From Parachlamydiales bacterium (lineage in GTDB: Bacteria; Chlamydiota; Chlamydiia; Chlamydiales; SM23-39), in NCBI GenBank assembly GCA_050302075.1, contig JBNLAH010000001.1, positions 196,157-260,156 of the forward strand: 64,000 nt of DNA, in the 5' to 3' direction. Position 1 is the first letter of the stretch. Every line of letters begins with the position of its first letter. Of the stretch, positions 9,993-60,072 are shown one piece after another. The notes beneath the pieces were generated by a model. That model was given only the letters and a program-made list of their open reading frames with translations. It searched no databases and had not been told where the DNA came from. The position numbers were made by a program, and so were the translations under genes.

Positions 9993-10137
9993 CTTAGTGT
10001 TTTAGTCTACAAAAAAAATGTTTTTAGCAATGTTTAAAAATGATCTAAAAAAAAAGTGCTTAGATATTTTTTTAACCTTTCAATTCCAAATATTTTCATG
10101 GTATGATAATCGTAGTTTTTAGTTCAGAAAAGTGCAT

Positions 10138-12118: not shown

Positions 12119-13258
12119 TTACCTAAGATCTAAAACAAAATATGCTGGATAAGCAAAGTTATTATTAGATCTTGGAATGGCAAGGATTTTTACTTCTTTA
12201 CCACTATATTTGCTTAAATCAATTTTTGTGCTGTAAAGAAAGGCAAAAGGAATGTTGCTCTTATCTTTTAATAAAAAGTCTCCTGGCCTGTTTTGAATGT
12301 CATTACTATAAGGAGTTAAAATCCCTGTAATTGTCGTTGCATTGGCTCTTTGCTCTTTGTAAAAGTCATCAACAGTTTTATCACTATGAAAGGTCAGCCA
12401 ATTTTCAAATAGTGAATTTTCTATAGCATTCCAAAACTGAATAGCGCCTTTTAGCTTTAACTTAGCTATAGGTTTTTTTACTATAGGAGCTAGTTCTTCG
12501 ACTTTAACCTTTGGAAAAAGAGAATCATCTTTTATTTGATCTTCTTTTAGAGACTTCTCTTCCATGTAAGCTAACTTTTTCTCGAGGTAATTTTCTTTGA
12601 ATTTTACAAGCAGCTTTTTAGCTTCATTAGCTTTACTTGGAAAATCAGAGTATTCTTTAATGATTTTCTCCAGCAGGCTTATAACGCTTTTTGGAGACAT
12701 GGAGTCAAATGGCATTTTAGACTCTTCTTGATATACTGTATAGGCTTGATCTAGTAAACCAGTGACTTGTTGTTTTCTCTTGATCATATTGTTAAAGTAA
12801 TCGGGAGAACCAGCGTAAGAGACAAATTCTTTTGAAATGTAAAATTTTGTATTCTTAGGTGGCTTGATTTCTAGCCATTTTCGATTTTCATTGCAGACCT
12901 CTCCAACAATCTTTGTGCCAGACTCTAATTGTCCTATCACAGGAGCTTCAATACTAGGAGCAAGTCGTATGTTAACTCTGTTTGCTTCAACTGTGTTTTC
13001 TAAGACATAACTTCTAAAGATATAAGCTTTAACTTCATCTGGCGGCTGTATTGCCCAAAAAGCATCTTCATCACCGATGACTAAAATCAAGTCATCTTTG
13101 TTCTGTTGCATTATTATTTTGCCGTCCAAATCTGCTTTTGCTCTAACGCGAACCTTGTTTCCTACTACTCTTCCAGTAAATTTCTGAAAAGAGCTTTTAG
13201 GCTTGGCAAAAGCTGTGGAAAATATTAAAAGTAATCCACATAAAAAATATTTACCCAT
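12119..13258 (-). CDS. Exported bacterial SH3-domain protein (chlamydial CT017-like)
   Basis: Signal peptide; two SH3b-like repeats (KVRVRA, RVNIRLAP); C-terminal NNFAYPAYFVL. Confidence 0.75.
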   Translation of the reverse strand: MGKYFLCGLLLIFSTAFAKPKSSFQKFTGRVVGNKVRVRAKADLDGKIIMQQNKDDLILVIGDEDAFWAIQPPDEVKAYIFRSYVLENTVEANRVNIRLAPSIEAPVIGQLESGTKIVGEVCNENRKWLEIKPPKNTKFYISKEFVSYAGSPDYFNNMIKRKQQVTGLLDQAYTVYQEESKMPFDSMSPKSVISLLEKIIKEYSDFPSKANEAKKLLVKFKENYLEKKLAYMEEKSLKEDQIKDDSLFPKVKVEELAPIVKKPIAKLKLKGAIQFWNAIENSLFENWLTFHSDKTVDDFYKEQRANATTITGILTPYSNDIQNRPGDFLLKDKSNIPFAFLYSTKIDLSKYSGKEVKILAIPRSNNNFAYPAYFVLDLR

Positions 13259-45250: not shown

Positions 45251-45338
45251 ATATGCCTGTGCCTACTAGTTCAGAAAATACTATCAAATTATCCTCTATA
45301 GTCTGCTTGTATTTGCATCAAGTTATTCTTTAATATAT

Positions 45339-45821
45339 TTAAGAATTAACTTGGGGTTTAGGAGAGTGAAAATAGGAAATAAGTTGCTTTGCATTTAAAG
45401 CAAAAAGAGCAATGAAAAGAATGCTTAATGGACTTGATAAATGCATTGAGAGGCCACATCCAAAAATCATTATAACACAGCTCATAATCTTTGCAGCTAT
45501 CATCCAAACTTTATCTAAAGCACTAAAAAGTTTCTCAAGCTTTGGAAGATTTCCAATATTTGCAATTTTTTGTATTCCATACGTCAGAAGAGGCATTGTA
45601 AGTCCAACACTTCCTAATGAAATAATACTTAAATCACTAAGATACAACTCAGATGCTGCAGCCATTAGAAAGATTGAGGAAGCAGGTTGCTGTAAGATTT
45701 TTCCAGCTACCCGTGTAATAGAAGATTCTGAGGATGTCTCCATAAGATTTCCAGCTGCTGAAGACACTCCTACTGAAGCTTCTAAATACATAATTAAATC
45801 ATGTAAATATATTGGACCCAT
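45339..45821 (-). CDS. Multi-TM Inc-like hypothetical protein, paralogue 1
   Basis: MGPIYL...KILQQPA...QKIANI.NLP.LEK.FS.LDKV; homologous to 50838 and 53909. Confidence 0.8.
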   Translation of the reverse strand: MGPIYLHDLIMYLEASVGVSSAAGNLMETSSESSITRVAGKILQQPASSIFLMAAASELYLSDLSIISLGSVGLTMPLLTYGIQKIANIGNLPKLEKLFSALDKVWMIAAKIMSCVIMIFGCGLSMHLSSPLSILFIALFALNAKQLISYFHSPKPQVNS

Positions 45822-46135: not shown

Positions 46136-46171
46136 TGGAGATAAAGAGAAGTGTTCAGAATTTTTAACTGG
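46136..46171 (+). repeat. ssrA-end/att-like repeat 1 (degenerate)
   Basis: TGGAGATAAAGAGAAGTGTTCAGAATTTTTAACTGG. Confidence 0.75.
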
Positions 46172-46296
46172 AAGGAATTTTCAAACAAAATTGGGCAATA
46201 GGCTGTTTAGCCAACAGTTTGTTGTCTAATTAATAGTGATCTAATTTCATAGCCTCCTCAATGACGTGTTTGGAGCTATTAATTGTCTGCTAGGTT

Positions 46297-47586
46297 TTAG
46301 TTTTTACTGTTTAAAGTCTTAAAGCTAGCTCTGTAGCTTGCAACTATGAGTAGTACCATCAAAATAAAAACAAGTATCTTAAGATAGAGAGCTATAGCAG
46401 CAATTGATCCAAAGGTAACTAAGAGTCCTTGCGTGGTCAGTGATGGAACTGCCATCATAATAGGAAGTGCGATCATCTCAGTAACGATTTTGGTTTTGAA
46501 TCGGTTTTGATAGGGTAGATAGAGATATAATATTTGAGTTAAAGGGAAGAACAGAAAGCTAGCAGTAGTCACAAGAAGTCCATTAAAGACTCCTAGCCCT
46601 GGCCAAGATAAAGAGGAACTTAGAAAGATAATCCCTCCTACCAGGATAGATAGGGAGGCATAGAGAGCGGTGGTTTTCCATCCTTTCTTTAAAATGAGCC
46701 AGGTACCTAATATTACCCAAATAATAGAAATTGCAATTGTTGCAGAGACTACAAATCTTAAGTAACTGCCCATAAAAAGTTGGTAATCAGCTGGTTTCAG
46801 AGACTGAGTCTTAATCTGGAACTTAATGAGAATATCTAAAAAGTTTTTGATCATAGTAGAACCAGCTAATAAATAAGCAGCGCTTAAGATAGGAAAGTGA
46901 GTTTGTGATGAAGAAGACTCTTGGGGATGGATCAAACTATCCGGCAATCTTTTCCATGACCAGTTGAAGGTGAAGAAAGAAAAGACTACGAGGGCTATAG
47001 CTGGAATAACCATAGCCATTAGGGACCATTTGGAGGCGCCAATTGCCATTAAGCCTAAATTTGATACAATGGCTCCAGCAACACCCAAGACAAATGCAAG
47101 TGGAATATAATATTTTATTCCTTCAGGTAGGGAAGAAATACGATTAATAAACCCCCAGACAAATAGTGAATAAAGACTAAAGTTGAAAACACTTAGCATT
47201 ATGTACATCAGAGATATAACCCAGTGAGTTATCAAAGGTTTATATATTCCAAACGCTTCTGGTACCCCATTCAGTACCAAATGTTCTTGAAAAAACATTA
47301 GCCCAGTAAGAAGAACTATTACTCCTGTTAAAGCGATTAAAGTGCCCCTAAATACTTTTTCGAAGGGTTTGTAAATTGAAAAAATAAGAAGAGAGAGTGC
47401 CAGGATTATTTGGGGTAAGAATGTAGATACTTTAAGAGCTGGAATTTGAGCAAATCCTAGTTGTTTTCCTATGAGGGCATTTTGAGATAAATGAAAAAGA
47501 GTACTGCTACAAGAGAGGAGCACCAACAGCCATAAAGCTGGAAGAAAGATGAATTTTATGGCTTTTCGTAAGTTGGCATTTGTCAT
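46297..47586 (-). CDS. Divergent NTT/TLC (Npt1/Npt2-like) MFS transporter
   Basis: About 11-12 TM; LFVWGFINRI...KYYIPL, KKGWKTTAL and QILYLYL....RFKTK echo TLC-family motifs. Confidence 0.6.
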   Translation of the reverse strand: MTNANLRKAIKFIFLPALWLLVLLSCSSTLFHLSQNALIGKQLGFAQIPALKVSTFLPQIILALSLLIFSIYKPFEKVFRGTLIALTGVIVLLTGLMFFQEHLVLNGVPEAFGIYKPLITHWVISLMYIMLSVFNFSLYSLFVWGFINRISSLPEGIKYYIPLAFVLGVAGAIVSNLGLMAIGASKWSLMAMVIPAIALVVFSFFTFNWSWKRLPDSLIHPQESSSSQTHFPILSAAYLLAGSTMIKNFLDILIKFQIKTQSLKPADYQLFMGSYLRFVVSATIAISIIWVILGTWLILKKGWKTTALYASLSILVGGIIFLSSSLSWPGLGVFNGLLVTTASFLFFPLTQILYLYLPYQNRFKTKIVTEMIALPIMMAVPSLTTQGLLVTFGSIAAIALYLKILVFILMVLLIVASYRASFKTLNSKN

Positions 47587-47863
47587 GATAAATCCTGTTT
47601 TTTTAATTTTTTAAGCCGCTTGTACTTATAAGCTCATTTTTTCTATCTGATTTTCAACATGCAATCGGGTGCTCTATTCTACATTTTTTAGAACGATTGT
47701 TGCAAAAGGAAAGGAAGTTGGATGCTTCCTTTGCGGTTTCCTTTTTTTAGAGAAAATCTTTCTTAAGGATTTGACTTCATATTAAAATCTGATGGATTTG
47801 CATCTTTATCAGGGTTTTCAATTAAGAGCTTAAAGACTGAGATTGGATACAAAAAGTGTCCAA

Positions 47864-47899
47864 CCAGGTAGGAAGGATGCATTCAGAACTTTTGATTGG
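47864..47899 (+). repeat. ssrA-end/att-like repeat 2
   Basis: CCAGGTAGGAAGGATGCATTCAGAACTTTTGATTGG. Confidence 0.8.
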
Positions 47900-47966
47900 A
47901 AAAAAGTTGAATCAACTGATATGGTGCCCTTGCTAAAAATAAGGTTTTTGCACAAGAGCTAGTATT

Positions 47967-48806
47967 TTGAAAAAACTCTCTCTACTCCTTTTTCTATTGG
48001 TTATTTCTAAGGGACTTGCTGAAGAGAAATTAACAAGTCATTCATTGCCTACAGTTGTCATCACTTGCGCCTCAGGTGAACTAGGAGGAGCAATAGGAAA
48101 AAAATTGGCAAGTGCAAATAATTTGATTTTGACTGGTCGAAATCTAAAGAAACTTCAAATTCTTCAAAAAGAATTACAATCTAAATTCCCACACAATTAC
48201 GAAATAATTTTGCTAGACTATTGTGATTCATCTTCCATTCATGAATTTGAGAAAACTTTAAAAGTTAAAAAATCTGAAATTTCAGGCCTAGTTTTAATAA
48301 CGCCACGCCCCCAGTTTTGCAGTAGCCTACTAGAGTCTGAAGCAAATTGGATGAGTTTATTTCGACTTACTTTTACAGGTCCTATAGAGGTTCTCAAAAA
48401 AGTATTATCTCACACAGCCTCTCTACGTAAAATAGTTGTAATAGCGGGAACAACATCTGTTCAGCTGATCCCTGAGTATGGACCTACTTGTGTCATAAGA
48501 AGAATGTGGACGACTTATGTGAAAGCACTATCGCACCAGTTGGGTTCTAAAGGAATTTGTATAAACGCCTTATCACCAGGAGTTGTATTAACAGACTTCC
48601 ATGTTGAAAGAATAGCAATTAAAGCAAGACAAAATTATATTGATTACAATGATCAGATGAAGCAAGAGGTCGCGCAAATTCCTCTAGGACGTCATGCACT
48701 ACCTAGAGAAGTAGCGCAAACTGTAAAATTCCTTTTATCAAATGACTCAGACTTTATCAACGGAATCAATTTAGTGGTTGATGGGGGATCTACATTAAGC
48801 TATTAA
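47967..48806 (+). CDS. Atypical short-chain dehydrogenase/reductase
   Basis: VITCASGELG, INALSPG..LT, IPLGR...P.EVA and SDFING..LVVDGG; signal-like N-terminus. Confidence 0.82.
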   Translation: MKKLSLLLFLLVISKGLAEEKLTSHSLPTVVITCASGELGGAIGKKLASANNLILTGRNLKKLQILQKELQSKFPHNYEIILLDYCDSSSIHEFEKTLKVKKSEISGLVLITPRPQFCSSLLESEANWMSLFRLTFTGPIEVLKKVLSHTASLRKIVVIAGTTSVQLIPEYGPTCVIRRMWTTYVKALSHQLGSKGICINALSPGVVLTDFHVERIAIKARQNYIDYNDQMKQEVAQIPLGRHALPREVAQTVKFLLSNDSDFINGINLVVDGGSTLSY

Positions 48807-48971
48807 TGCTTATTTACCGTCTTTTTAAGTTTGGGAATAAAGAGAAATGAATTTTTCTAGATATGAGGTTTTTTCATTTAACGCTCTTTCCTAATTAAGG
48901 CATCAGAAGCTAGATCAACAACTATTTATGAGCCAGATAATAATTAACAAACCGACTGTCAAAGGGTACTT

Positions 48972-49502
48972 ATGAAACAGTTAAAGGAAACTATGCCTTC
49001 GCAGCTTGTTAAGTCTCTCGAAGAGATATACCAGCCGGCTGGCTTGAATATTCGTGATTTTGAAAGAGAAACCGAGAGTCAAGATTATGGAGCCTGTCGA
49101 TTCAGGCTAAATAGTCAAAAGATTGTGTTTCGTGTTGCAAAGACTACTCCAAAAAAAGTTGGACAATTTGTTGTTATATGGAAAAGAGCTGCAAGTGGTG
49201 TTATTGAGCCCTATGAAGTAAAAGACGATGTAAATTTTTTTGTAATTGCAGTACAAGCAAATGGCCATGTAGGTCAGTTTGTATTTCCTAAAAATGTTTT
49301 GCATGCAAAAGGAATTCTTTCAGGGAAAGGCTCTGAGGGCAAAAGAGCAATTAGGGTCTTTCCTGTATGGGATATTACTACAAGTCGACAAGCTAAGAAT
49401 ACTCAAGCATGGCAGCTTGATTATTTTTTCGAAATCACTAAAAATCAAGAAGAGAACATTTCAAATATTCAAAAAAGGTATAAGTATGACAATAAGTCCT
49501 AA
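48972..49502 (+). CDS. MepB family protein
   Basis: ESQDYGAC.F, FRVAK.TPKK.GQFV..WKR, GQFVFP, GKRAIRVFP.W and TQAWQL.YF. Confidence 0.85.
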   Translation: MKQLKETMPSQLVKSLEEIYQPAGLNIRDFERETESQDYGACRFRLNSQKIVFRVAKTTPKKVGQFVVIWKRAASGVIEPYEVKDDVNFFVIAVQANGHVGQFVFPKNVLHAKGILSGKGSEGKRAIRVFPVWDITTSRQAKNTQAWQLDYFFEITKNQEENISNIQKRYKYDNKS

Positions 49503-49857
49503 GCCCAACCTCCAGCTTGTTTATGTATCTGATATAAAGCATTCAACAGATTTTTATAAAATGATTTTTAAGGCTGAACCAGTGTTTACAAGTCCTCGTT
49601 ATGTGGCATTTTCGGCTGGAGAAGGCGCATTGTTTGCTATTTGGGCAGGAGGAACAGTTCCTGATGTATCTTCTCCCAGATATTCTGAGGTGGGAATTAT
49701 GCTACCTTCTAATGAAGCTGTAGACCAGCTCTATGAGGAATGGAAGCAGAATTCTGATATTAACATCGTTCAGGAACCCCAGACTGAAGTTTTTGGTCGT
49801 ACTTTTCTTGTAAAAGACCCTGATGGTCATATTATTCGCGTTTGCCTAAAAGATTAA
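49486..49857 (+). CDS. VOC/glyoxalase-bleomycin resistance family protein
   Basis: LVYVSD...S..FY and FGRTFLVKDPDGHIIRV; ATG 49486. Confidence 0.85.
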   Translation: MTISPKPNLQLVYVSDIKHSTDFYKMIFKAEPVFTSPRYVAFSAGEGALFAIWAGGTVPDVSSPRYSEVGIMLPSNEAVDQLYEEWKQNSDINIVQEPQTEVFGRTFLVKDPDGHIIRVCLKD

Positions 49858-49918
49858 TGAAATAAGATGTTCAAACCCGTAATCCGCTGAGATTGGATGA
49901 AAAAAGTGTCCAATTAAT

Positions 49919-49954
49919 TGGAGGTGGAGAGACTCGTTCAGAACTTTTAATTTG
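49919..49954 (+). repeat. ssrA-end/att-like repeat 3
   Basis: TGGAGGTGGAGAGACTCGTTCAGAACTTTTAATTTG; first 14 nt identical to 59670-59683. Confidence 0.92.
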
Positions 49955-50209
49955 ATGAAAGCTCATCAAAGTTCTCTCTTTTTAAACTCCTTTTATCATA
50001 TCCCCAGATCAGAGTCTTACGTGTTTCTAGTTTAGACAATTTTGTGCTTTCAAACCGACTTTCAGAAACGCTTTAAACTTCATGATCTATTTTTCTGGGA
50101 TGTCTCCAAAATTTCTCTTTTAAAAATAGTTTATTGGTAAATTTTAAGTTGTTTTTTTTGTTAATATTGATAAAGTTTTGCCCCACTTTAGAAACCTAAG
50201 GAGTATAAT

Positions 50210-50755
50210 ATGTGTGTTAGTTTTAGAAAACTTGGTACTGCGATTCTTGGAGCAAGTGCAGCTGGTTATGCTGCTGGAAGATTTAGCAATCAAAGACAAG
50301 TGCAAGCACAAATAGATGCTAGGGTAGAAAGTGCATATCTGCAGGCGCAACGAGAGGCAAAAGCTAAGATGCGCGAGCAAATGTACAATCGACTAGGAAT
50401 TGTGAGATTTGGTAATGCGCGAGCAAATTATGCTCCTGCTTTTGTTGTAGCAACAGTACCTCCATTTTCTGATATGCCAGTAGCTAAATTTGAAGGAGGG
50501 GGCATCCTTCCTGGTAGTGGTATAATGATGGACAAGGTGCGTATGACTGGCCAAAATGTATCTGAATGTCTAGCTGAATGTGTGGATGCTATAGAAGAGG
50601 ATCAAGCTCTTATTGTTATACACGATGGGCAGGCAGTGTTCGTTATAGGTTGTGGAGGACGTCCTGAATCGGATTGGAGTGCAGTACGCAAAGCTTTAGG
50701 AATTAATGAAAGTGTTTCAGGGGGGAAGATAACAGATGTTGACAATAGCATCTAA
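50210..50755 (+). CDS. Hypothetical protein
   Basis: 181 aa ORF with AAGGAG RBS; visibly more G+C-rich than its flanks. Confidence 0.65.
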   Translation: MCVSFRKLGTAILGASAAGYAAGRFSNQRQVQAQIDARVESAYLQAQREAKAKMREQMYNRLGIVRFGNARANYAPAFVVATVPPFSDMPVAKFEGGGILPGSGIMMDKVRMTGQNVSECLAECVDAIEEDQALIVIHDGQAVFVIGCGGRPESDWSAVRKALGINESVSGGKITDVDNSI

Positions 50756-50837
50756 TGTGAGTTGATTCAGAAAATACTATCAAATCATTCTCTCTAGCCT
50801 TCTTATAATTGCATGTCAAGCTGTTCTTTTAATATAT

Positions 50838-51332
50838 TTAAGAATTGACTTGGGCTTTAGAATTTTGAAAATAGGGCATAAGTTGCTTTGTATATAAAAC
50901 AGCATTTAATGCAAAAAGACCTATGAAAAGAAGGATTAGTGGACTTGATAAAGATGCTGAGAGGTTATACCCAATAATCATTGCACCACAGCTCATAACC
51001 TTTGCAGCTATCGACAAAACTTTATCTAAAGTACTAAAAAATTTCTCAAGCTTTGGAAGATTTGCAATGTTTGCAATTTTTTGCATTCCATGCGTTATAA
51101 GAGGCGCTATTAGCCCAATGCATCCTGATAAAATAGTGATTTCGTTTCTATAGTAAAAACCAGATACTATGCTCATTGTAAAGAGTGAGAAAGCAGGTTG
51201 CTGTAAAATTTTTCCAGCTATCTTACTAGTAGAAGATTCTGGTCTTGTTTCAATAAAGTTTCCAGCTGTTGAAGACAATCCTGTTGCAGCCATCAAGTAC
51301 ATAAATGGCCTATCTAAATATCCTGGTCCCAT
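50838..51332 (-). CDS. Multi-TM Inc-like hypothetical protein, paralogue 2
   Basis: Homologous to 45339 and 53909, including the flanks. Confidence 0.8.
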   Translation of the reverse strand: MGPGYLDRPFMYLMAATGLSSTAGNFIETRPESSTSKIAGKILQQPAFSLFTMSIVSGFYYRNEITILSGCIGLIAPLITHGMQKIANIANLPKLEKFFSTLDKVLSIAAKVMSCGAMIIGYNLSASLSSPLILLFIGLFALNAVLYTKQLMPYFQNSKAQVNS

Positions 51333-51843
51333 AATTTTACCTATTATTAATAGGTCTCTATTTTATATTAATTAAAATAAATAAACAAGAAACTAGATTA
51401 TTTTATAATTACTTTGGGTATATATTGTAATTTAATTTCTAGTTTTTTATTTAAAATGTTATATTATTAATTGCCGTAAATAACTGCAAGTTTGTTTCTT
51501 ATATTTTTTCCCCATTTATACTAATTTGTAGATATCTGAGAAATATTTCAAAGTAATAAAAATTTTTTTTTAATGTTTGTCTTCAATTGCGCTCAGTTAT
51601 TTTAATCTATTCAAATATATTTCTAAAAAACTGGGATTAGGAAATTACTTGTAAGTCTTATGATATAATTCATAAGATCATTGTAAAATTCAATTAAGTT
51701 AAGTCAAAATAAAGCGAAACAAAAAGCAAACTGAATGAAGCTTTTGCCTTAAAAGTAAACATTGCTCGTAAAAGATAAGCTTTCTTTCACAATCGAAAAA
51801 AAACTTAACAAGTCCCTCAACATAAATGTTTTCATTTGCAAAA

Positions 51844-51879
51844 TGGAGGTGGAGAGACGAGTTCAGAACTTTTGACTAT
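51844..51879 (+). repeat. ssrA-end/att-like repeat 4
   Basis: TGGAGGTGGAGAGACGAGTTCAGAACTTTTGACTAT. Confidence 0.92.
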
Positions 51880-52055
51880 GCTTTGAAAAGAAATCTTTTT
51901 CATTTACGTGGGAGAGGATGTTAAGTAGATCATTTTTATACAAGACAAAAAGGGAACATAAATAAAACTGCATTCAGCTTTTATCTTCAAAATAAATAAA
52001 TATATCTGCCATAATTTTCCGATTTAAAAAACATATCTTTAAATGGATTTAGATT

Positions 52056-53693
52056 ATGAAGTGTTATATAAAAAGTTTTTGTAAATTGTTTAGTGTTTTT
52101 CTAGCTGTAATCGGGTGTTTGTCTTCCCAACCATTATTCTCTGAAGCTTTAAAAACTGAAATGTTTTCTGTCGAAAAACCAGTTTTGCCAAAAATTTCCA
52201 ATCTTCAACTCCCAACACTAAACTCTGAAGTCTGTTCAAATCAAGACGGAAAAATACTACAGAGTTATAAAAAGAAGTTTGAAAAAAAATATGGCCGTAA
52301 TTTTTTAAAAAAACAGTGCAATTACAATTTTCTTTCTCTGGTTTGTAAAAAAGATTTGCAATGTGCTACTAGCATGCAAAAAAAAGCAGTTCAATTCCTA
52401 AAAATGATCTTTGAAGAACTCTCTAAAGCCAATTATAGCAAAGAAGACTTTCGTCATTATATGAACTGGTCTTTGAATATTTCTAGTTCATTATTTTTTG
52501 AAAAATATCTTTTTGCAGAGGAAGAGTTAAATGATTTATTTTACAAGCTCAATGATATTTCTGTCAGATCTCTCACTCCTAGATCAGCAGAAGAAAAAGG
52601 AAGGCATGAGGCATTTGCCTTAAAAAGCAAAAATGGGAAAGTTGCAGCTTTGATAAAAGTTGTAAAAGGTCCTAGGAATGCTTGGGCTAAAGTAGCACCT
52701 ATCATGGAGCAAAACGGTTCTGCAGGTCTTTATGAAAAGGTGGGTTATGATATTGATGTAATCTTAGGTTTGAAAATGACCCCGGCCACGTTGCTTGGGA
52801 AAATGCAATTAGAAAATGGTGAGACTGAAGATGTGGTCATCCAAAACTTTATTTCTAACTCCATTGATTTAGGTAATCTTTTGTATCGAGAAGATGGTGC
52901 TGAACTTATTATGAGCATTCCTACAGCTCCAGCTCAGATGATGGCCTTAAGTGGTATGATTAAAGGTCGTTTAGGTGGACACTTGGGTAATTATCTGTTT
53001 CATTTAAAAGATGGAGTAATAGATACAGTTTATGATATTGATTTAGAAGAACTTTTACCTCCTTGCAATCGACTTGAAAAAGGAATGACTCTATACCCTT
53101 TAAAAGAAGATAGAAATCAAGCCGATCGAATCAATGTATCTGATCTTAGCTCAGATTTACAGGAAATGGCTTATAAATCTGCTCCCTTATGTAGAATGTG
53201 TATTTTAGGATTACCACAGAATGGAAAGCCTTTTGAAAGGGCATGTTTGAAAATTATTGTGCATGATTTGCTTCCCTGTTTGCTAGATGAGTATCATGAA
53301 TATTTAAATGATGAAAAAGAAATTAGAAGAGAGTGCTTGCAAGCTCAAAAGGAACGTCTTTTAAAAATTCAGGAAATTTGCAAACAGCAATTAGAACTTC
53401 CTGAAATTTCGCTAACTCCAAGAGACCTTTATTTTTATCTTTTTGGAGGAAAACATCTTTATAAATTAGCCCGTGAAAGAGGATATCCTCCAATTATTAT
53501 TTTCAATCAAGTCATTGGAGATCCTCTTCAACATAGTATGATTGATTTTTCACGTCCTGAAAAAATGCCTTTTTGTAAATTTTTGAATGAGAGAGATACT
53601 TCAGAGCAGAAAAAAGCTCATAGTGATTTTATATTTGATAATCTGCTTATCTTAGAAAATCAAGAATCTCTAGCAGGTCAAGGCAATCAATAA
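52056..53693 (+). CDS. Exported PI3/PI4-kinase-like (type II PI4K fold) protein
   Basis: AALIK, EKVGYDID..LG...TPAT, IQNFI, GGHLGNYL and DIDLEELLP in PI4K order; signal peptide. Confidence 0.55.
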   Translation: MKCYIKSFCKLFSVFLAVIGCLSSQPLFSEALKTEMFSVEKPVLPKISNLQLPTLNSEVCSNQDGKILQSYKKKFEKKYGRNFLKKQCNYNFLSLVCKKDLQCATSMQKKAVQFLKMIFEELSKANYSKEDFRHYMNWSLNISSSLFFEKYLFAEEELNDLFYKLNDISVRSLTPRSAEEKGRHEAFALKSKNGKVAALIKVVKGPRNAWAKVAPIMEQNGSAGLYEKVGYDIDVILGLKMTPATLLGKMQLENGETEDVVIQNFISNSIDLGNLLYREDGAELIMSIPTAPAQMMALSGMIKGRLGGHLGNYLFHLKDGVIDTVYDIDLEELLPPCNRLEKGMTLYPLKEDRNQADRINVSDLSSDLQEMAYKSAPLCRMCILGLPQNGKPFERACLKIIVHDLLPCLLDEYHEYLNDEKEIRRECLQAQKERLLKIQEICKQQLELPEISLTPRDLYFYLFGGKHLYKLARERGYPPIIIFNQVIGDPLQHSMIDFSRPEKMPFCKFLNERDTSEQKKAHSDFIFDNLLILENQESLAGQGNQ

Positions 53694-53711
53694 AAAGTCG
53701 AAATTTAGAAA

Positions 53712-53742
53712 AAAATGAGGCAACAAACTGTTGCCTCATTTT
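53712..53742. terminator. Bidirectional intrinsic terminator
   Basis: Perfect 14 bp stem AAAATGAGGCAACA-AAC-TGTTGCCTCATTTT between convergent genes. Confidence 0.85.
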
Positions 53743-53795
53743 CAACAGCTTACTGGCAAATATTAATAATAGTGATCTGAGTTCATAGGATTTAA

Positions 53796-53831
53796 GGGGA
53801 GTGTAGGGATAAATTCAGAACTTTTGATTGG
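53796..53831 (+). repeat. ssrA-end/att-like repeat 5
   Basis: GGGGAGTGTAGGGATAAATTCAGAACTTTTGATTGG. Confidence 0.8.
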
Positions 53832-53908
53832 CATGGGGTTATAGTAATGTCTTCTCATCCCCCCTATAACATGCTTATAATAACACTTAAGCTATTCTTT
53901 TAATATAT

Positions 53909-54409
53909 TTAAGGATTAACGAGGTCTTTAGAAGGTTGAAAATAGTGCATAAGTTGCTTTGTATATAAAACAGCATTTAATGCAAAAAGACTTAAGAAAA
54001 GAAGGATTAGTGGACTTGATAAAGATATTGAGAGCTTATATCCAAAAATCATTGCACCACAGCTCATAACTTTTGCAGCTATCGACAAAACTTTATCTAA
54101 AGTACTAAAAAATTTCTCAAGCGTTGGAAGATTTGCAATATTTGCAATTTTTTGCATTCCAAGCGTTAGAAGAGGCATTGCAAGTCCAACACTACCTAAT
54201 AAAATATAGCTCCTGAGTCCAAGATCTAGATCTAGATCTGATACTTCATTCATTAGAAGGATTGAGACAGCAGGTTGCTGTAAGATTTTTCCAACTACCT
54301 TACCGATAGAAGATTCTGAGTCTGTTTCAATGAAGTTTCCAACTGTTGAAGACAATCCTGCTGTAGCCATCAAGTACATAATTGGCTTATCTAGATATAT
54401 TGGTCCCAT
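53909..54409 (-). CDS. Multi-TM Inc-like hypothetical protein, paralogue 3
   Basis: Homologous to 45339 and 50838. Confidence 0.8.
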   Translation of the reverse strand: MGPIYLDKPIMYLMATAGLSSTVGNFIETDSESSIGKVVGKILQQPAVSILLMNEVSDLDLDLGLRSYILLGSVGLAMPLLTLGMQKIANIANLPTLEKFFSTLDKVLSIAAKVMSCGAMIFGYKLSISLSSPLILLFLSLFALNAVLYTKQLMHYFQPSKDLVNP

Positions 54410-54441
54410 AATTTTACCATTAGTTAATTAACTATGTGTTA

Positions 54442-54470
54442 ATTATATATTAATTAAAATAAATAGACAA
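54442..54470 (-). promoter_or_regulatory. Sigma66/70-type promoter of paralogue 3
   Basis: TTGTCT-N17-TATAAT; similar sequence lies upstream of paralogues 1 and 2. Confidence 0.6.
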
Positions 54471-54623
54471 GAATCTGATTTTTTAATAATAATTACTTGA
54501 TATTTATATAATAATATAGTTGCGTTTTTAATTTAAAATGATGTTTTTTATAAAATAAATTACGGCAAGTAGCTATAAGTTTAAATAACTTGAATCAGTT
54601 CTTTATAGCCCTTTGCTACAAAT

Positions 54624-54659
54624 TAACAGTGGAGAGACGCTTTCAGAACTTTTGATTGG
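54624..54659 (+). repeat. ssrA-end/att-like repeat 6
   Basis: TAACAGTGGAGAGACGCTTTCAGAACTTTTGATTGG. Confidence 0.88.
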
Positions 54660-54717
54660 GATAATTTCGCTAAAAAGGCTATAACTTTTTCTAAAATTTA
54701 TATCAGTAGAAGAGCCT

Positions 54718-55029
54718 ATGGATAGAGGAGAAGTAATACTTTACACAACAGCAGATGGTCAGACCTCCATCTAATATATTTCTGAGATGCCATTCATTAT
54801 TTTAAGAGCAAAAAACTCAAATAAGATAGGTATGTTGCGGACATCTGCTATAGAGCTCGGAATCAAGTTTGTGGATTTTACTGATACAATTACAATTGGT
54901 ACTTATCAAGAGCAGCTAGAGCGAACAAAAGTCACTCAGAAAGCTGATCTAATTTACTATGGAATCGTATTATTTGGTGATTGGGAAAAAGTACCAGAAT
55001 TGACTAAAAAGTTTTCTCTCTGGAAGTAA
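54718..55029 (+). pseudogene. Deletion junction: RhuM/Fic-associated N-terminal stub joined to the C-terminal half of a DUF2000-like gene
   Basis: MDRGEVILYTTADGQTSI* (54718-54774), then in the same frame YISEMPFIILRAKNSNKI...YYGIVLFGD...LTKKFSLWK. Confidence 0.6.
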
Positions 55030-55041
55030 GGCCTGAATATC

Positions 55042-55929
55042 ATGAATATTTCAATAGATGCTTCTCTAGTCAGTCGTTTGATTGCCTCTCAATTTCCTAA
55101 CTGGAAACATCTTCCTATTGAACCTGTAGCGATGAGTGGGTGGGATAATCGAACCTTCCATTTAGGTAAAAAAATGTTGGTTCGCCTTCCAAGCAAAGCA
55201 GATTATGAACTGCAAGTGGAAAAGGAGCATGAGTGGTTACCAAAACTCGCTCTAGCGCTTCCAGTTTCAATTCCTATTCCTTTGGCAATGGGCAGGCCAG
55301 AGTATGGGTATCCTTGGAAATGGTCGATTTATCAATGGCTTGAAGGTGAGACTGTAGCTACTGATTTGCCGAGTGATTTAGTTGCATTTGCCCTTGATCT
55401 TGCCAGTTTTCTGAAAGCTTTACATAAAATCGATACTGAGGGAGGGCCCTCGCCAGGATTACACAGTTTTTATCGAGGTGGACCGTTATCAATTTACGAT
55501 TCGGATACACGTAAAGCAATTCTTTCCTTAAAAAGGAAAATTGATGCAAAGACAGCAACGGATATTTGGGAAAAAGCTTTATCAACTTCTTGGAAGGATC
55601 ATCCTGTGTGGGTTCACGGAGACATCAGCGCCGGCAACCTTTTAGTTAAAGCTAATAAACTTTGTGCTGTGATTGATTTTGGGCAACTAGCAGTAGGTGA
55701 TCCAGCATGTGATCTTGCTATCAACTGGACGTTATTTTATGGGAAAAGTAGGAATGCCTTTCAAAAGGCATTTTCTTTTGATGAAGATACTTGGGTACGG
55801 GCTCAGGGGTGGGTTTTATGGAAAGCGTTAATTGTAGCAGTTGGTGGTACCAATCCAAGTAATTTCGAGTCGAAGCAGTGTTGGCGTATTCTTGAAGAAG
55901 TAATAGAAGATCACCGTAAGTCTAATTGA
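55042..55929 (+). CDS. Aminoglycoside phosphotransferase (APH) family protein
   Basis: GWDNRTFHLG, VRLPS, WVHGDISAGNLL and VIDFG....GDPACDL. Confidence 0.9.
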   Translation: MNISIDASLVSRLIASQFPNWKHLPIEPVAMSGWDNRTFHLGKKMLVRLPSKADYELQVEKEHEWLPKLALALPVSIPIPLAMGRPEYGYPWKWSIYQWLEGETVATDLPSDLVAFALDLASFLKALHKIDTEGGPSPGLHSFYRGGPLSIYDSDTRKAILSLKRKIDAKTATDIWEKALSTSWKDHPVWVHGDISAGNLLVKANKLCAVIDFGQLAVGDPACDLAINWTLFYGKSRNAFQKAFSFDEDTWVRAQGWVLWKALIVAVGGTNPSNFESKQCWRILEEVIEDHRKSN

Positions 55930-56094
55930 TACTCTCTCAATTTAATTTAATAATCCTGACTTGATCCATTTTTTCAGATTGATACTTGATTTTGCAAAAG
56001 CATCTGCAGGACTTTTATTAAAGGGGGCAGGCCAAGGACGAAGGTTAGGGTAGCGTTACAGCTGGGATTTTTAGTTACATGTCACTAAAAACAA

Positions 56095-56122
56095 AAGGCT
56101 TTAGCCGTAAAACTAAAGCCTT
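56095..56122 (-). terminator. Hairpin immediately downstream (minus sense) of the ssrA-end copy at 56132
   Basis: AAGGCTTTAG-N8-CTAAAGCCTT followed by a U-tract on the minus strand. Confidence 0.7.
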
Positions 56123-56131
56123 AAAATTAGT

Positions 56132-56167
56132 TGGAGGTGGAGAGACGCATTCAGAACTTTTGATTGG
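56132..56167 (+). repeat. ssrA-end/att-like repeat 7 (best match to consensus)
   Basis: TGGAGGTGGAGAGACGCATTCAGAACTTTTGATTGG. Confidence 0.93.
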
Positions 56168-56228
56168 TCTAAAATGGATCAAAATTTTAATGTAATTAAC
56201 TGTTATTTAGTCAGTTAAGCTTTTGTTG

Positions 56229-56293
56229 TTGACGTTGAGAATTGGATAGAATATACTGCAGTTGTTGATTAATTGATGTAAATACTATCCAAT
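56229..56293 (+). promoter_or_regulatory. abiE promoter with overlapping inverted-repeat operator
   Basis: TTGACG-N17-TATACT; imperfect IR ATTGGATAGAATATAC (56241-56256) / GTAAATACTATCCAAT (56278-56293). Confidence 0.7.
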
Positions 56294-56920
56294 ATGAAAA
56301 GAAAATCAAAAGCTATTCGAGATAAAGCTATTGAAATATTTAAGCTTCATGGAGGTATTCTCAGATCTTCAAAGGCTATTAAGGAAGGAATACATCCTCG
56401 TATTCTTTATGAATTACGTAATCAGGGTATTATTGAAGAGCTTCAAAGGGGATTATATGCTTTAACCGATTTACCTGACATTGAAGATCCTGATTTAGTT
56501 GCAATTTCAAAAATGATACCTGATGGAGTTATTTGTTTAATATCGGCTCTTTATTTTCATCGTTTGACAGTACAAATTCCAAGATGGATAGATATTGCAG
56601 TTAAGAGAAAATATGTTCCTCCTAAAGTCAAACATCCTCCAATCCAAATTCATTGGTTTTCAGATAAATTTTATAAATCAGGCATAGAAAAATATAATTT
56701 TGGGGGAGCTGAAATAAAAATATATTCTCGAGAAAAATCGATTATTGATTGCTTCAGATTGAGAAAAAAAATAGGGATTGATGTTGCTGTAGAAGCTTTG
56801 AAGAATTATTTAAAACAGGATAATCTTAATATTCATCTTTTGTTGGATTTTGCAAAGGAATCGAGAGTAATTAAATTATTAGAACCATATCTACAGGCTT
56901 TAATTTATGATCAATCATAA
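56294..56920 (+). CDS. abiEi: Type IV TA antitoxin, AbiEi family
   Basis: N-terminal wHTH (G.I..L.RGLY), GVICLISALYFH.LT.QIP and IYSREKSI.DCFR.R.KIG. Confidence 0.88.
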   Translation: MKRKSKAIRDKAIEIFKLHGGILRSSKAIKEGIHPRILYELRNQGIIEELQRGLYALTDLPDIEDPDLVAISKMIPDGVICLISALYFHRLTVQIPRWIDIAVKRKYVPPKVKHPPIQIHWFSDKFYKSGIEKYNFGGAEIKIYSREKSIIDCFRLRKKIGIDVAVEALKNYLKQDNLNIHLLLDFAKESRVIKLLEPYLQALIYDQS

Positions 56921-57791
56921 CATAAAAAACATTTCAGTTTCAGTAAAAGCCCGTCTATTAAACCTTGCTCGCAATTCAAAAAGACCTTTTCAGGAATTAT
57001 TGCAATATTATGGAATGGAGCGTTTTCTTTTTAGACTATCAGAATCTAATCATAGAGATGTATTTATTTTAAAAGGAGCTCTTCTTTTAAAAGTTTGGAG
57101 AATTTCTGATTCTCGAGCAACGATGGATATTGATACTTTAGCAAGAACATCAAATTCTTTGGAAAATCTTAATAAAATAACAAAAGAGATATGCGAGCAT
57201 GTTCCATCTATTGATGATGGTGTTGAATTTCTTTCGTCTTCCGTTAGAGTAGAAAAAATGCAATTGCAGAAAGAGTATGAAGGTATTCGAATTCGTTTTG
57301 AAGGCTGTCTTGGTTCTGCAAAAATTCCAATGCAAATTGATGTTGGGTTTGGGGATGTTATTACTCCTGCGGTTGAAGAATACCAATATCCAAATCTTCT
57401 AGATTTTCCAGGACCAAAACTTAAAATGTATCCTCAAGAAACACTTATTGCAGAGAAAATTTTAACAATGGTTGAAAAAGGAGAAACAAATAGTAGAATA
57501 AAGGATTTTTATGACGTTTGGCTTCTAATTCGACACAATACATTTTCTCATGAGATATTGAAATTAGCTTTGGATAGAACTTTTAAATCTCGTAATATGC
57601 AATATAATTTCAAAACAGTTCGATCTTCGATTGAAATATATTTAAAAAGCGTTCAGGCAAATTTATTATGGGAAAGATTTAAACTAAAGAAAATACCTCA
57701 GATATATCAGCATATTTCATTTGAAATTTTAACAAATGAAATAATCAATCTTTTAGAGAAGATAGAAGAAAATATTTTACTCAAATTATAA
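56907..57791 (+). CDS. abiEii: Type IV TA toxin, AbiEii nucleotidyltransferase
   Basis: ERFLFRLS, FILKGALL, RATMDID, IDVGFGD, AEK and SRIKDFYD; overlaps abiEi. Confidence 0.9.
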   Translation: MINHNIKNISVSVKARLLNLARNSKRPFQELLQYYGMERFLFRLSESNHRDVFILKGALLLKVWRISDSRATMDIDTLARTSNSLENLNKITKEICEHVPSIDDGVEFLSSSVRVEKMQLQKEYEGIRIRFEGCLGSAKIPMQIDVGFGDVITPAVEEYQYPNLLDFPGPKLKMYPQETLIAEKILTMVEKGETNSRIKDFYDVWLLIRHNTFSHEILKLALDRTFKSRNMQYNFKTVRSSIEIYLKSVQANLLWERFKLKKIPQIYQHISFEILTNEIINLLEKIEENILLKL

Positions 57792-57815
57792 TATTGAGAA
57801 TTAAAATAATAAGCC

Positions 57816-58463
57816 TTAAATAATCTGAAGTCTTAAATTAAAATCAGAAAGATCATAAAAAAATGAATTTTTATGAATATAGGGGTTCATTCTTTGCCTT
57901 TCATTTAGCTCTTTTTCCCAATTTTCCTTATTGTTTAAGGCGTCAGAAGCGGCATCAACAACTATTGCAGATCCAGATAAAATAAGTGCAGTGCTGGTTC
58001 CAGCGCTAAATGGAGCGGCCAAGACACCTACAAGAATTTGACCTATACCAAACCAATATTTCAATTTAACTCCACTAGGCTGTTCTAGTTTGCATAAGTG
58101 AGCCATATTCTTTAAGCTAATCGGTTTTACGGATACAGATCGAGTTTTATAATATATTTGTAAAGCAAAATTCATCATAGGATCTAAAAGCTCCTCATTT
58201 GATAGGCTATGAATAAACTTATCAATGAGCAAAGATCCTTTTTCAAGATCTCCCTTAGAAAGATAAACCGCAGCTCTCATGCCTGTTATTTTGCTTTTCT
58301 GTTCAGGTTCGAAAGTTTCCCATTCGTCCAATGTTTGCAAACTTTCTAAAAACCTCTCTTCTTGAAAGTAATGAATAAAAGACTCTGCATATCGACTACT
58401 TAAAGGAGATGCAAAAATAAATAAGGGAAACGGTAAAAATATAAACAATCTCAGAAAATGCAT
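57816..58463 (-). CDS. Exported hypothetical protein (TPR-like, hydrophobic C-terminal hairpin)
   Basis: ATG 58463 after GGAGG; signal peptide; GILAAPFSAG-type segment. Confidence 0.6.
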   Translation of the reverse strand: MHFLRLFIFLPFPLFIFASPLSSRYAESFIHYFQEERFLESLQTLDEWETFEPEQKSKITGMRAAVYLSKGDLEKGSLLIDKFIHSLSNEELLDPMMNFALQIYYKTRSVSVKPISLKNMAHLCKLEQPSGVKLKYWFGIGQILVGVLAAPFSAGTSTALILSGSAIVVDAASDALNNKENWEKELNERQRMNPYIHKNSFFYDLSDFNLRLQII

Positions 58464-59371: not shown

Positions 59372-59400
59372 AAAAGCCTATCAGATTTGATAGGCCTTTT
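59370..59400 (-). terminator. Terminator behind the displaced ssrA 3' copy
   Basis: GCCTATCA-GATT-TGATAGGC stem with a U-tract on the minus strand. Confidence 0.75.
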
Positions 59401-59413
59401 GACTATATTTGTC

Positions 59414-59439
59414 AATGAAGGTGGAGAGAATCGAACTCT
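59414..59439 (+). repeat. 26 bp direct repeat of the ssrA 3' end (attR-like)
   Basis: AATGAAGGTGGAGAGAATCGAACTCT versus AATGGAGGTGGAGAGAATCGAACTCT at 59668-59693; 1 mismatch. Confidence 0.92.
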
Positions 59440-59630
59440 ATGATTTTTTCTAAACTGGATCAAACTTCGATAAATAACATTAATAATATCAATAAGTTAA
59501 GTGATGTTCAAATGTTCTATCTTATTTTGGTTTTAGCCGCTTTTTTGCAGTCTAGTGCGTAAGTAGTGCGTAAATGAATTTAACAAAGCAGATTTTGAAA
59601 TTGTAAATTTAAGATATTTCTCTTTAAAAA

Positions 59631-59661
59631 TAAAAGACTTCGCTTGGATTTTGCGAAGTCT
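59631..59661 (-). terminator. ssrA terminator
   Basis: AGACTTCGC-N9-GCGAAGTCT stem followed by a U-rich tract on the minus strand. Confidence 0.78.
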
Positions 59662-59669
59662 AGAATGAA

Positions 59670-60072
59670 TGGAGGTGGAGAGAATCGAACTCTCGTCCTT
59701 AGCAAACTCAATATTAATGACTACATGCTTATCTCCTTTGTTAATAATCTACTCTGATGAAAGGAGCAACACTACAAGTAGATTTAATCCTCGTTGTCTT
59801 GGGTATCTTTTCAGAGGATCAGAGAAAAGGACCCAAACCCAGAAATATGACGGTAGATTCTAAAACTCTGGATCTGATTTTAGGCTACCGGGCGCTTAAA
59901 ACTGTTAGGTCTTAAGCAGCAGCTGCAAAAGTTTCTACTCCAGCAGAGAAGTCAACTTTTACGATTTTGCTTTCTTTAGCAATTATAGTGTAATCGGCTT
60001 TTTAAGAGGCCAACCGATCAACCTCTGCATGCCACTAATACGAAATTTCCAAGTCGAAACCTGTTCACCCCC
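59670..60072 (-). ncRNA. ssrA: tmRNA; tag peptide (A)AKESKIVKVDFSAGVETFAAAA* at 59980-59912
   Basis: 5' GGGGGTGAACAGGTTTCGAC; 3' GGACGAGAGTTCGATTCTCTCCACCTCCA with G3.U alanine identity pair and T-arm; CCA not encoded; extended -10 TGTTATAAT at 60088-60080. Confidence 0.96.

Follow-up and report, generated by a model that had tools for sequence, protein, structure and literature searches.

A large serine recombinase gene that appears to read through its own attachment site as the probable source of a repeat array beside ssrA in environmental chlamydiae

Introduction

What are the short direct repeats that lie beside the transfer-messenger RNA (tmRNA) gene ssrA in an environmental chlamydia, and how did they come to stand there as an array? 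The question is raised by a 64,000-nucleotide stretch of the Parachlamydiales bacterium assembly GCA_050302075.1 (contig JBNLAH010000001.1, positions 196,157 to 260,156 of the forward strand), hereafter called the window, in whose own numbering coordinates are given unless another contig is named. A preliminary description of this DNA, made from the letters alone, proposed that the repeat is the orphan end of an integrase gene, suspected to encode a large serine recombinase (LSR), that runs through the attachment site of its own element (attP), and that integration would exchange the tail of this gene. Here we report that the repeats are very probably the junctions of repeated site-specific integration at the 3' end of ssrA by an LSR resembling CcrB and DsiB. 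Each junction would carry half of the DNA target of the recombinase, a half that is also the severed tail of the recombinase gene.

Results

The repeats match the end of ssrA

The motif TTCAGAAYTTTT occurs seven times in the window, always on the plus strand, while shuffled sequences contained it 0.26 times on average and twice at most (0/100 reached seven). Translation of the seven copies gave exactly the peptides that had first been written for them, at the same coordinates. The repeat is about 36 nt long, and its copies share one strand; relative to ssrA they are downstream, which here means lower coordinates. Good copies open with TGGAGGTGGAGAGA, 14 nt identical to the final 14 nt of ssrA in antisense, after which the two diverge: the ssrA end on the plus strand is TGGAGGTGGAGAGA followed by ATCGAACTCTCGTCCTTAG, whereas the repeat continues into CGCATTCAGAACTTTTGATTGG. 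Antisense ssrA at 59670 reads WRWRESNSRP*, as had been stated (asterisks mark stop codons). Three more copies were found beyond those already listed, namely a second-type junction at 59416, a copy on the 506-nt contig C89 and another, degenerate, on C2. The junctions, with P and P' denoting the left and right arms of attP, and the features of ssrA are as follows.

46136..46201, plus strand: WR*REVFRIFNW (WR*REVFRIFNWKEFSNKIGQ*); most distal, degenerate junction with a core relic and the P' arm
47864..47962, plus strand: PGRKDAFRTFDW; short core deletion, P' arm and orphan tail PGRKDAFRTFDWKKVESTDMVPLLKIRFLHKS*
49919..50035, plus strand: WRWRDSFRTFNL; attP-like (P-P') junction with the 14-nt ssrA-end block, P' arm and a 38-codon orphan tail
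51844..51924, plus strand: WRWRDEFRTFDY; core, P' arm and orphan tail WRWRDEFRTFDYALKRNLFHLRGRGC*
53796..53903, plus strand: GECRDKFRTFDW; degenerate core, P' arm and tail GECRDKFRTFDWHGV...
54624..54725, plus strand: *QWRDAFRTFDW; truncated core
56132..56218, plus strand: WRWRDAFRTFDW; best-preserved copy, TGGAGGTGGAGAGA with P' arm and tail WRWRDAFRTFDWSKMDQNFNVINCYLVS*
59416..59562, plus strand: second-type junction, identical to the ssrA end over 20 nt and followed by an open tail of 47 codons, *RWRESNSMIFSKLDQ...
59670-60072, minus strand: ssrA (tmRNA; ARAGORN, Rfam 159 bits), its 3' end being the presumed integration target
56095..56122, minus strand: displaced ssrA-type intrinsic terminator, hairpin with U-run (z -3.5)
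59372..59399, minus strand: second displaced terminator hairpin (z -5.9)
59635..59661, minus strand: present ssrA terminator (z -4.8)

The tail at 59416 differs from that at 56132 but is related to it (SKMDQ and SKLDQ, respectively). The three hairpins with their U-runs are on the ssrA-sense strand. One lies immediately outside the 56132 junction, one immediately outside the 59416 junction, and the third follows ssrA; the first two are displaced ssrA terminators and the last is the current one. The unit of hairpin, core and arm (56067-56186) recurs with 80-95% identity in many other genomes.

The parent gene encodes a large serine recombinase

At locus L187 one repeat copy forms the end of a 125-aa open reading frame (ORF), ...EKRQLLNLVFQNLQLRDVNLSVQVTESFKTMVDYKECPTNWRWRDAFRTFDW..., and with this ORF as query 174 of 400 genomes of the order gave matches, many of which are open frames 495-582 aa long. 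All five full-length relatives (5/5) carried the Pfam domains Resolvase, Recombinase and Zn_ribbon_recom, which bears out the suspected nature of the parent gene, and the N-terminus reads MKAILLARVSSKEQ, with a serine pair. The best NCBIfam family was CcrB with 86 bits against a cut-off of 900; because this is far under the cut-off, the LSR is not a Ccr equivalog and CcrB is only its closest named family. Residues 218-443 align to the A118 integrase structure 4KIS, leaving a C-terminal extension of about 55 aa.

The LSR gene was expected to lie convergent with ssrA. Of the 30 best loci, 19 indeed have a convergent tmRNA gene that overlaps the match end, 2 have a tRNA gene in this place and 9 have neither. 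The LSRs of relatives finish ...CPTNWRWRESNSRP*, with their last codons on antisense ssrA, in agreement with the predicted end C-x3-WRWRESNSRP*. Some run a few codons further into antisense ssrA, and the tails vary by host (ESNSRP*, ESNSRPKQTTY*, ESNSRPWQITN*). Protein databases likewise hold proteins of 495-496 aa with the predicted end, one cluster of which has 42 members. Whole elements of 5-13 kb, with the LSR-ssrA fusion on one side and an orphan repeat on the other, were recognized in 5/6 fetched loci; at the sixth (L260) the LSR abuts an ssrA-like end and ARAGORN found no tmRNA gene. Intact LSR genes in relatives were seen only at the ssrA- or tRNA-proximal junction, while the internal LSR-type junctions are decayed (14/14), which suggests that new elements enter beside ssrA and push older ones outward.

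Upstream of the LSR, four of the six elements (L256, L259, L260, L261) share a conserved three-gene module, consisting of a SpoVG-like gene (~89 aa), a primase/helicase-like gene with a CHC2 zinc finger and AAA_25 (~572 aa) and a gene for a ~172-aa protein to which Pfam assigned no family. In these four the region upstream of the LSR showed no second Resolvase gene. The module suggests that the excised element replicates. The LSR codons IGYKECP were also considered as a replacement ssrA terminator and rejected, as the folds at L259 and L256 were no better than shuffles (z -0.7 and -0.8). Six further LSRs of the same family (L211, L214, L215, L217, L219, L221) end in peptides of the antisense-tRNA type (...CPKGWGRLDSNQRRPKS..., ...WGNQDLNLRPTGYES...), and two of them abut tRNA-Tyr or tRNA-Met genes.

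The LSR gene continues in frame through the repeat

The proposal that the repeat continues the recombinase gene in frame is supported by the L187 relic, by 14 junctions between an LSR relic and the repeat, and by the near-intact gene of L224. In-frame read-through (...CPTNWRWRDAFRTFDW...) is thus seen in decayed LSR genes and in one near-intact metagenomic LSR: the gene on the metagenome contig L224, which has a single frameshift, passes through the site and ends ...CPTNWRWRDAFRTFDWSRVKIPSVLTSSTRVQRIT*. Three truncated database proteins (P0001, P0002, P0004) end in the same way.

The window itself holds remains of such genes, all of them relics of 10-22 codons. The shared stubs that had been given as EIGxKKCP read EIGYKKCPT at 47837 and EIG*KKCPI at 49887, and both align to the C-terminus of the LSR; judged by sequence, they are relics of the recombinase genes of older elements.

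47800..47863, plus strand: LSR C-terminus relic ...SLKTEIGYKKCPT; left (P) arm of an older element
49887..49918, plus strand: EIG*KKCPIN, relic of the LSR C-terminus, sharing its frame with the repeat that follows

As had been noted, the 49919 copy is in frame with its own stub and the 46136 copy has CLNKW upstream, in which CLNK is a relic of the CPxN codons of the LSR. The 47864 copy is out of frame with its stub through a short deletion. Among 207 copies this frame was usually closed within 12 codons upstream. To see with what the repeat is joined, 293 distinct sites were anchored on the shared block and classified by their left and right arms.

Left LSR coding, right ssrA: 25 sites
Left LSR coding, right repeat arm (P-P'): 14 sites
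Left non-LSR, right repeat arm: 186 sites
Left non-LSR, right ssrA: 43 sites
Left other, right other: 25 sites

A different flank is found at L033 (G052:C1), where a 74-nt copy of the sequence downstream of tRNA-Tyr is fused to the repeat arm at 10002-10075 and again at 12725-12798. The tRNA-Tyr gene of G052 retains the same flank, so that the element seems to carry a copy of the flank of its host target. As a clue to the crossover this duplication was ambiguous, and it was set aside.

The right arm combines coding constraint with a probable DNA half-site

The claim that the repeat varies like coding sequence held for its reading frame. Among 195 non-redundant copies, at least 8 open codons follow the block in 93% (53% and 58% in the other frames) and at least 13 in 76% (36% and 41%), and it is not until about codon 23 that stops become frequent in this frame. 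K, R or N occupies tail position 14 in 113/195 copies, and a hydrophobic residue (L, F, I, V or M) occupies position 15 in 153/195. The ratio of nonsynonymous to synonymous change (pN/pS) over codons 13-24, calculated from 210 non-independent pairs from 94 copies, was 0.58 in this frame versus 1.17 and 0.74 in the others. What speaks against coding constraint alone is the stretch TTC AGA ACT TTT, which is fixed at third codon positions as well (conservation at least 0.97; the search pattern that collected the copies included this motif, so the value is inflated). This fixation implies that the conserved arm is a DNA half-site as well as coding sequence.

The position of the arm agrees with this. 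GAACT starts 4 nt past the shared block in ssrA and 9 nt past it in the repeat (the centre was not placed), and the consulted sections of PMC11722253 describe an outer motif that lies about 5 bp farther out in the attP than in the attB (target-site) half-sites of LSRs. From this outward shift of 5 bp we infer that the 22-nt P' arm is the right half-site of attP, which would also encode DAFRTFDW.

The repeat is widespread in related genomes

The repeat was found in 25 of 61 relatives, where a reversed-pattern control gave one match in all, and in 104 of the 401 genomes of the order (control 0). A species-genome collection contained at least 141 stretches with the motif; apart from a few bins, these are labelled Chlamydiae, Parachlamydiales, Simkaniaceae, Rhabdochlamydiaceae, Waddliaceae or Anoxychlamydiales. 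The copies in G051, G053, G008 and G037 resemble those of the window in their place downstream of ssrA and in their common orientation. An arrangement unlike the usual same-strand arrays was seen on G046:C3, where two copies, 3149(-) and 3623(+) (L002/L037), face each other about 470 nt apart. Three related IMG/VR contigs (L043-L045) also contain the motif, as AGGTGGAGAGAC-NNN-TTCAGAACTTTT on the antisense strand of a phage gene; these were taken as chance matches, since the motif there falls within a coding gene, on its opposite strand, and lacks the neighbouring TGGAGG.

The array consists of short cassettes without a recombinase gene

The units between the repeats measure 0.8-3.3 kb and hold 1-3 genes each without an LSR, and several have a left arm of the terminator type. 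Their cargo comprises a TLC-like transporter, SDR, MepB and glyoxalase genes, several unknowns, a DUF2000 fragment with an APH-family kinase, and AbiEi/AbiEii.

46297..47586, minus strand: TLC-like transporter, cassette cargo
56294..57791, plus strand: AbiEi/AbiEii toxin-antitoxin pair, cassette cargo

The same TLC-like transporter gene immediately follows a repeat in three other contigs from metagenome-assembled genomes, with 82-84% nucleotide identity. A contig of another study is about 98% identical to 56139-57824 and has different sequence to its left. A 145-nt piece (54631-54775) shows 96.6% identity to G004, whose ileS region reaches only 72% and whose array at the same locus carries other cassettes. 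By these identities, cassettes are common to several genomes and out of step with the backbone.

No recombinase was present among the 21 array ORFs scanned. A match to PF00589 was likewise absent from the window, and the three tyrosine recombinase genes of this genome lie elsewhere. One of these, at G000:C1:350790-351266 outside the window, is a third gene (354-aa frame) besides two XerC/D-like ones; it shows no link to the array, and frames of similar length occur in G008 and G051. The array in the window can be read as a fossil, or as a set of short LSR-less cassettes that would depend on a recombinase acting in trans.

Several further features of the locus were noted. The units at 45268 and 50768 begin TTCAGAAAATACTATCAAAT and may be two more, very degenerate repeat arms, in which case the array may extend as far as 45250, where the TPR gene stops. 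The minus strand carries three paralogous genes for small membrane proteins, each with an AT-rich stretch upstream (45339-45821, 50838-51332, 53909-54409); all three match one and the same G004 gene with about 72% nucleotide identity. For the APH-family phosphotransferase at 55042-55929 the NCBIfam aminoglycoside/macrolide kinase models gave 42 bits at best against a cut-off of 205; since this kinase scores far under all cut-offs, we do not call it a resistance gene. Contig C89 and small low-depth contigs of the source sample (X1) at window positions 49917, 51842, 56123 and 56132 match the repeat only, with 1-2 differences, and probably stem from a second carrier of this element family that is less abundant in the sample. 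Joints in X2, X3 and X6 were considered as signs of excision and rejected, since their sides were short or their inserts unknown; their probable source is other organisms that carry the repeat.

Discussion

A scheme for the array

Our preferred reading, repeated integration by the LSR at the end of ssrA, has the following parts. In the free element the LSR gene runs through attP, with the left arm encoding ...YK(E/D)CPTN, the shared block TGGAGGTGGAGAGA encoding WRWR, and the right arm (P') encoding DAFRTFDW and about 10-25 further codons. Integration fuses the LSR gene to antisense ssrA, giving it the tail ESNSRP*. The P' arm thereby becomes an orphaned tail of the gene and stays at the opposite end of the element, beside the displaced ssrA terminator. 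The seven junctions and the second-type one would then delimit short cassettes that no longer contain an LSR, being either mobilised in trans in the manner of SCC-like (staphylococcal cassette chromosome) cassettes or simply decayed elements.

Several observations weigh against this scheme. Most internal junctions (186/293 sites) have a left arm of the terminator type and not of the LSR type, which a canonical attP x attB exchange does not predict. A full-length LSR with the native tail was found neither by the pattern scan of metagenomes (3 stretches) nor by that of 401 genomes, and a word-limited protein search (18 hits among 30 candidates) gave only truncated forms with this tail; moreover, the L224 gene is frameshifted and all 14 P-P' junctions lie in decayed genes. 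A symmetry scan revealed no clear crossover axis: the best allowed candidate was GA in GGAGAGA, the T of GGAGGTGG was the choice by eye, and the half-site lengths favour the left edge. Much of the conservation in the arm is, as described above, at the DNA level. Finally, this genome (G000, 96% complete) has no Resolvase-domain gene, tblastn with the LSR found only relics of at most 26 aa in it, and contigs of the source sample (X1) contained no rearranged joints. With no LSR in the genome, nothing shows activity here, and the array is now immobile unless a recombinase is supplied.

Who built the array and what the tail does can be judged separately. That a tyrosine recombinase, such as a tDNA-island integrase or XerC/D, built the array, with ordinary displaced ssrA fragments as repeats, is highly improbable. 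Most tRNA and tmRNA islands use tyrosine integrases, according to the consulted sections of the 2014 Islander paper (PMC4383910), and this genome has three tyrosine recombinase genes; all three, however, lie away from the recombinase-free array, and the gene that abuts ssrA and reads into the repeat in relatives is an LSR. G053 and G037 have arrays but two tyrosine recombinase genes each, none of which lies on the ssrA contig of G053 or within ~90 kb of ssrA in G037. We also consider it unlikely that the conserved arm is a recombinase binding site only, with an accidentally open frame and a tail that has no protein role past WRWR. The fixed third positions of TTC AGA ACT TTT speak for such a pure binding site, as does the wholly variable codon, which would fit an uncontacted spacer. 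An AlphaFold model of a 311-aa relic with the native tail may point the same way, with a mean predicted local distance difference test (pLDDT) score of 53.8 and values below 50 for residues 228-311, tail included, and McMurdie et al. 2011 (PMC3146451, consulted sections) thought that the equivalent overlap of dsiB was unlikely to be functional. Against it stand the depletion of stops in this frame only, which persists for about 10 codons past the conserved block, and the lowest pN/pS in the same frame. In addition, the K/R position and the hydrophobic position after it are kept through different codons, and related tail families recur on separate contigs (L155, L162, L223, L224).

If the tail does serve the protein, its exchange could be a built-in switch, in which an LSR with the full tail, made only from the circle or from internal P-P' junctions, integrates, while the ssrA-tailed form is inactive or biased towards excision. 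We regard this as a tentative and rather doubtful idea. The tail does change upon integration, the native tail is under coding constraint, the same idea was raised for dsiB in 2011 (PMC3146451, in part), and integration alters the C-terminus of Mx8 IntP, as a reference title in PMC4383910 indicates. The function nevertheless is speculative: the tail belongs to the extension past the A118-aligned part and has no confident predicted structure, and the ssrA-encoded tails differ in length by host. A still wider picture, an integron-like cassette system of the Chlamydiota, run by a serine recombinase, stackable without limit and directed by the LSR tail, seems to us improbable. In it, the terminator-type left arm of an LSR-less cassette would provide a working ssrA end and a fresh target with every insertion, and the swapped LSR tail would set or bias direction in place of a separate directionality factor. 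Departing from integrons, the array has no tyrosine recombinase (IntI), and its repeat is tied to the LSR gene.

Repeated integration by the LSR explains why the region beside ssrA is variable and holds transporters, a toxin-antitoxin pair and other accessory genes. It also adds an independent example, the second at ssrA, of a serine recombinase whose gene extends across its own attP. The LSR relatives that end beside tRNA genes belong to a target class not known for serine recombinases according to the consulted part of PMC4383910. Since its target is short, defined and part of a conserved chlamydial gene, the recombinase could, furthermore, be of interest for work on organisms that are genetically hard to manipulate.

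Comparison with known systems

To our knowledge, the recombinase genes of staphylococcal cassette chromosome (SCC) elements do not span an att site. The target of SCC is rlmH and not ssrA, and most SCC elements have two recombinases. Shared features are the use of LSRs, insertion at the 3' end of a conserved single-copy gene, tandem att-flanked cassettes and the presence of defence genes; many of the tandem SCC cassettes lack a recombinase and are mobilised in trans by Ccr (PMC11470126, for these SCC features in its consulted sections). The integrase genes of Mx8 (IntP) and SSV cross attP too, and integration alters the C-terminal region in Mx8 and splits the gene in SSV (PMC4383910, in part), but these integrases are tyrosine recombinases. 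The phage serine integrases of A118/LI, phiC31 and SPbeta have the domain architecture of the chlamydial LSR, whose residues 218-443 align to 4KIS. Large serine recombinases use short att sites of 40-50 bp. Their outer motif lies about 5 bp farther out in attP than in attB (PMC11722253, in part), a shift to which the spacing of GAACT would correspond. Different from the phage integrases are the position of the chlamydial attP inside the gene, the C-terminal extension of about 55 aa, and insertion that seems to recur at an occupied site.

A close likeness is that to Dehalococcoides, for which the consulted sections of McMurdie et al. (PMC3146451) describe tandem ssrA islands with the CcrB-like LSR DsiB. 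The authors suggest that DsiB might work fully only when its island is a circle or has another island next to it, and they count 15 islands that lack an integrase. As far as that description goes, the two systems share the target, the T-arm region at the 3' end of ssrA, and the arrangement as tandem islands with direct repeats of the ssrA end, next to which further bases are conserved. In each, a CcrB-like LSR of ~500-540 aa adjoins ssrA; its gene overlaps attL (the junction on the recombinase side) and takes its stop from the neighbour. Integrase-less islands occur in both. On the chlamydial side the attL overlap is found in relatives (19/30 loci) and not in the window genome. The phylum is another one, the window units are much shorter (0.8-3.3 kb), and the modules differ: SpoVG-like, CHC2-primase/AAA_25 and 172-aa proteins in chlamydiae, as against DsiA (a second, small serine recombinase) and RecF-like, ParB-like and Mom-like proteins in Dehalococcoides, whose six-gene module is not seen here. 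Compared by description only, the chlamydial native tail is conserved and coding-constrained, whereas DsiB ends are described as divergent (PMC3146451, in part); this constraint makes the old question of tail function testable. Literature searches, supplements aside, returned no report of these chlamydial elements. The layout is thus known from Dehalococcoides, while the element family and its cassette arrays in environmental chlamydiae are apparently described here for the first time.

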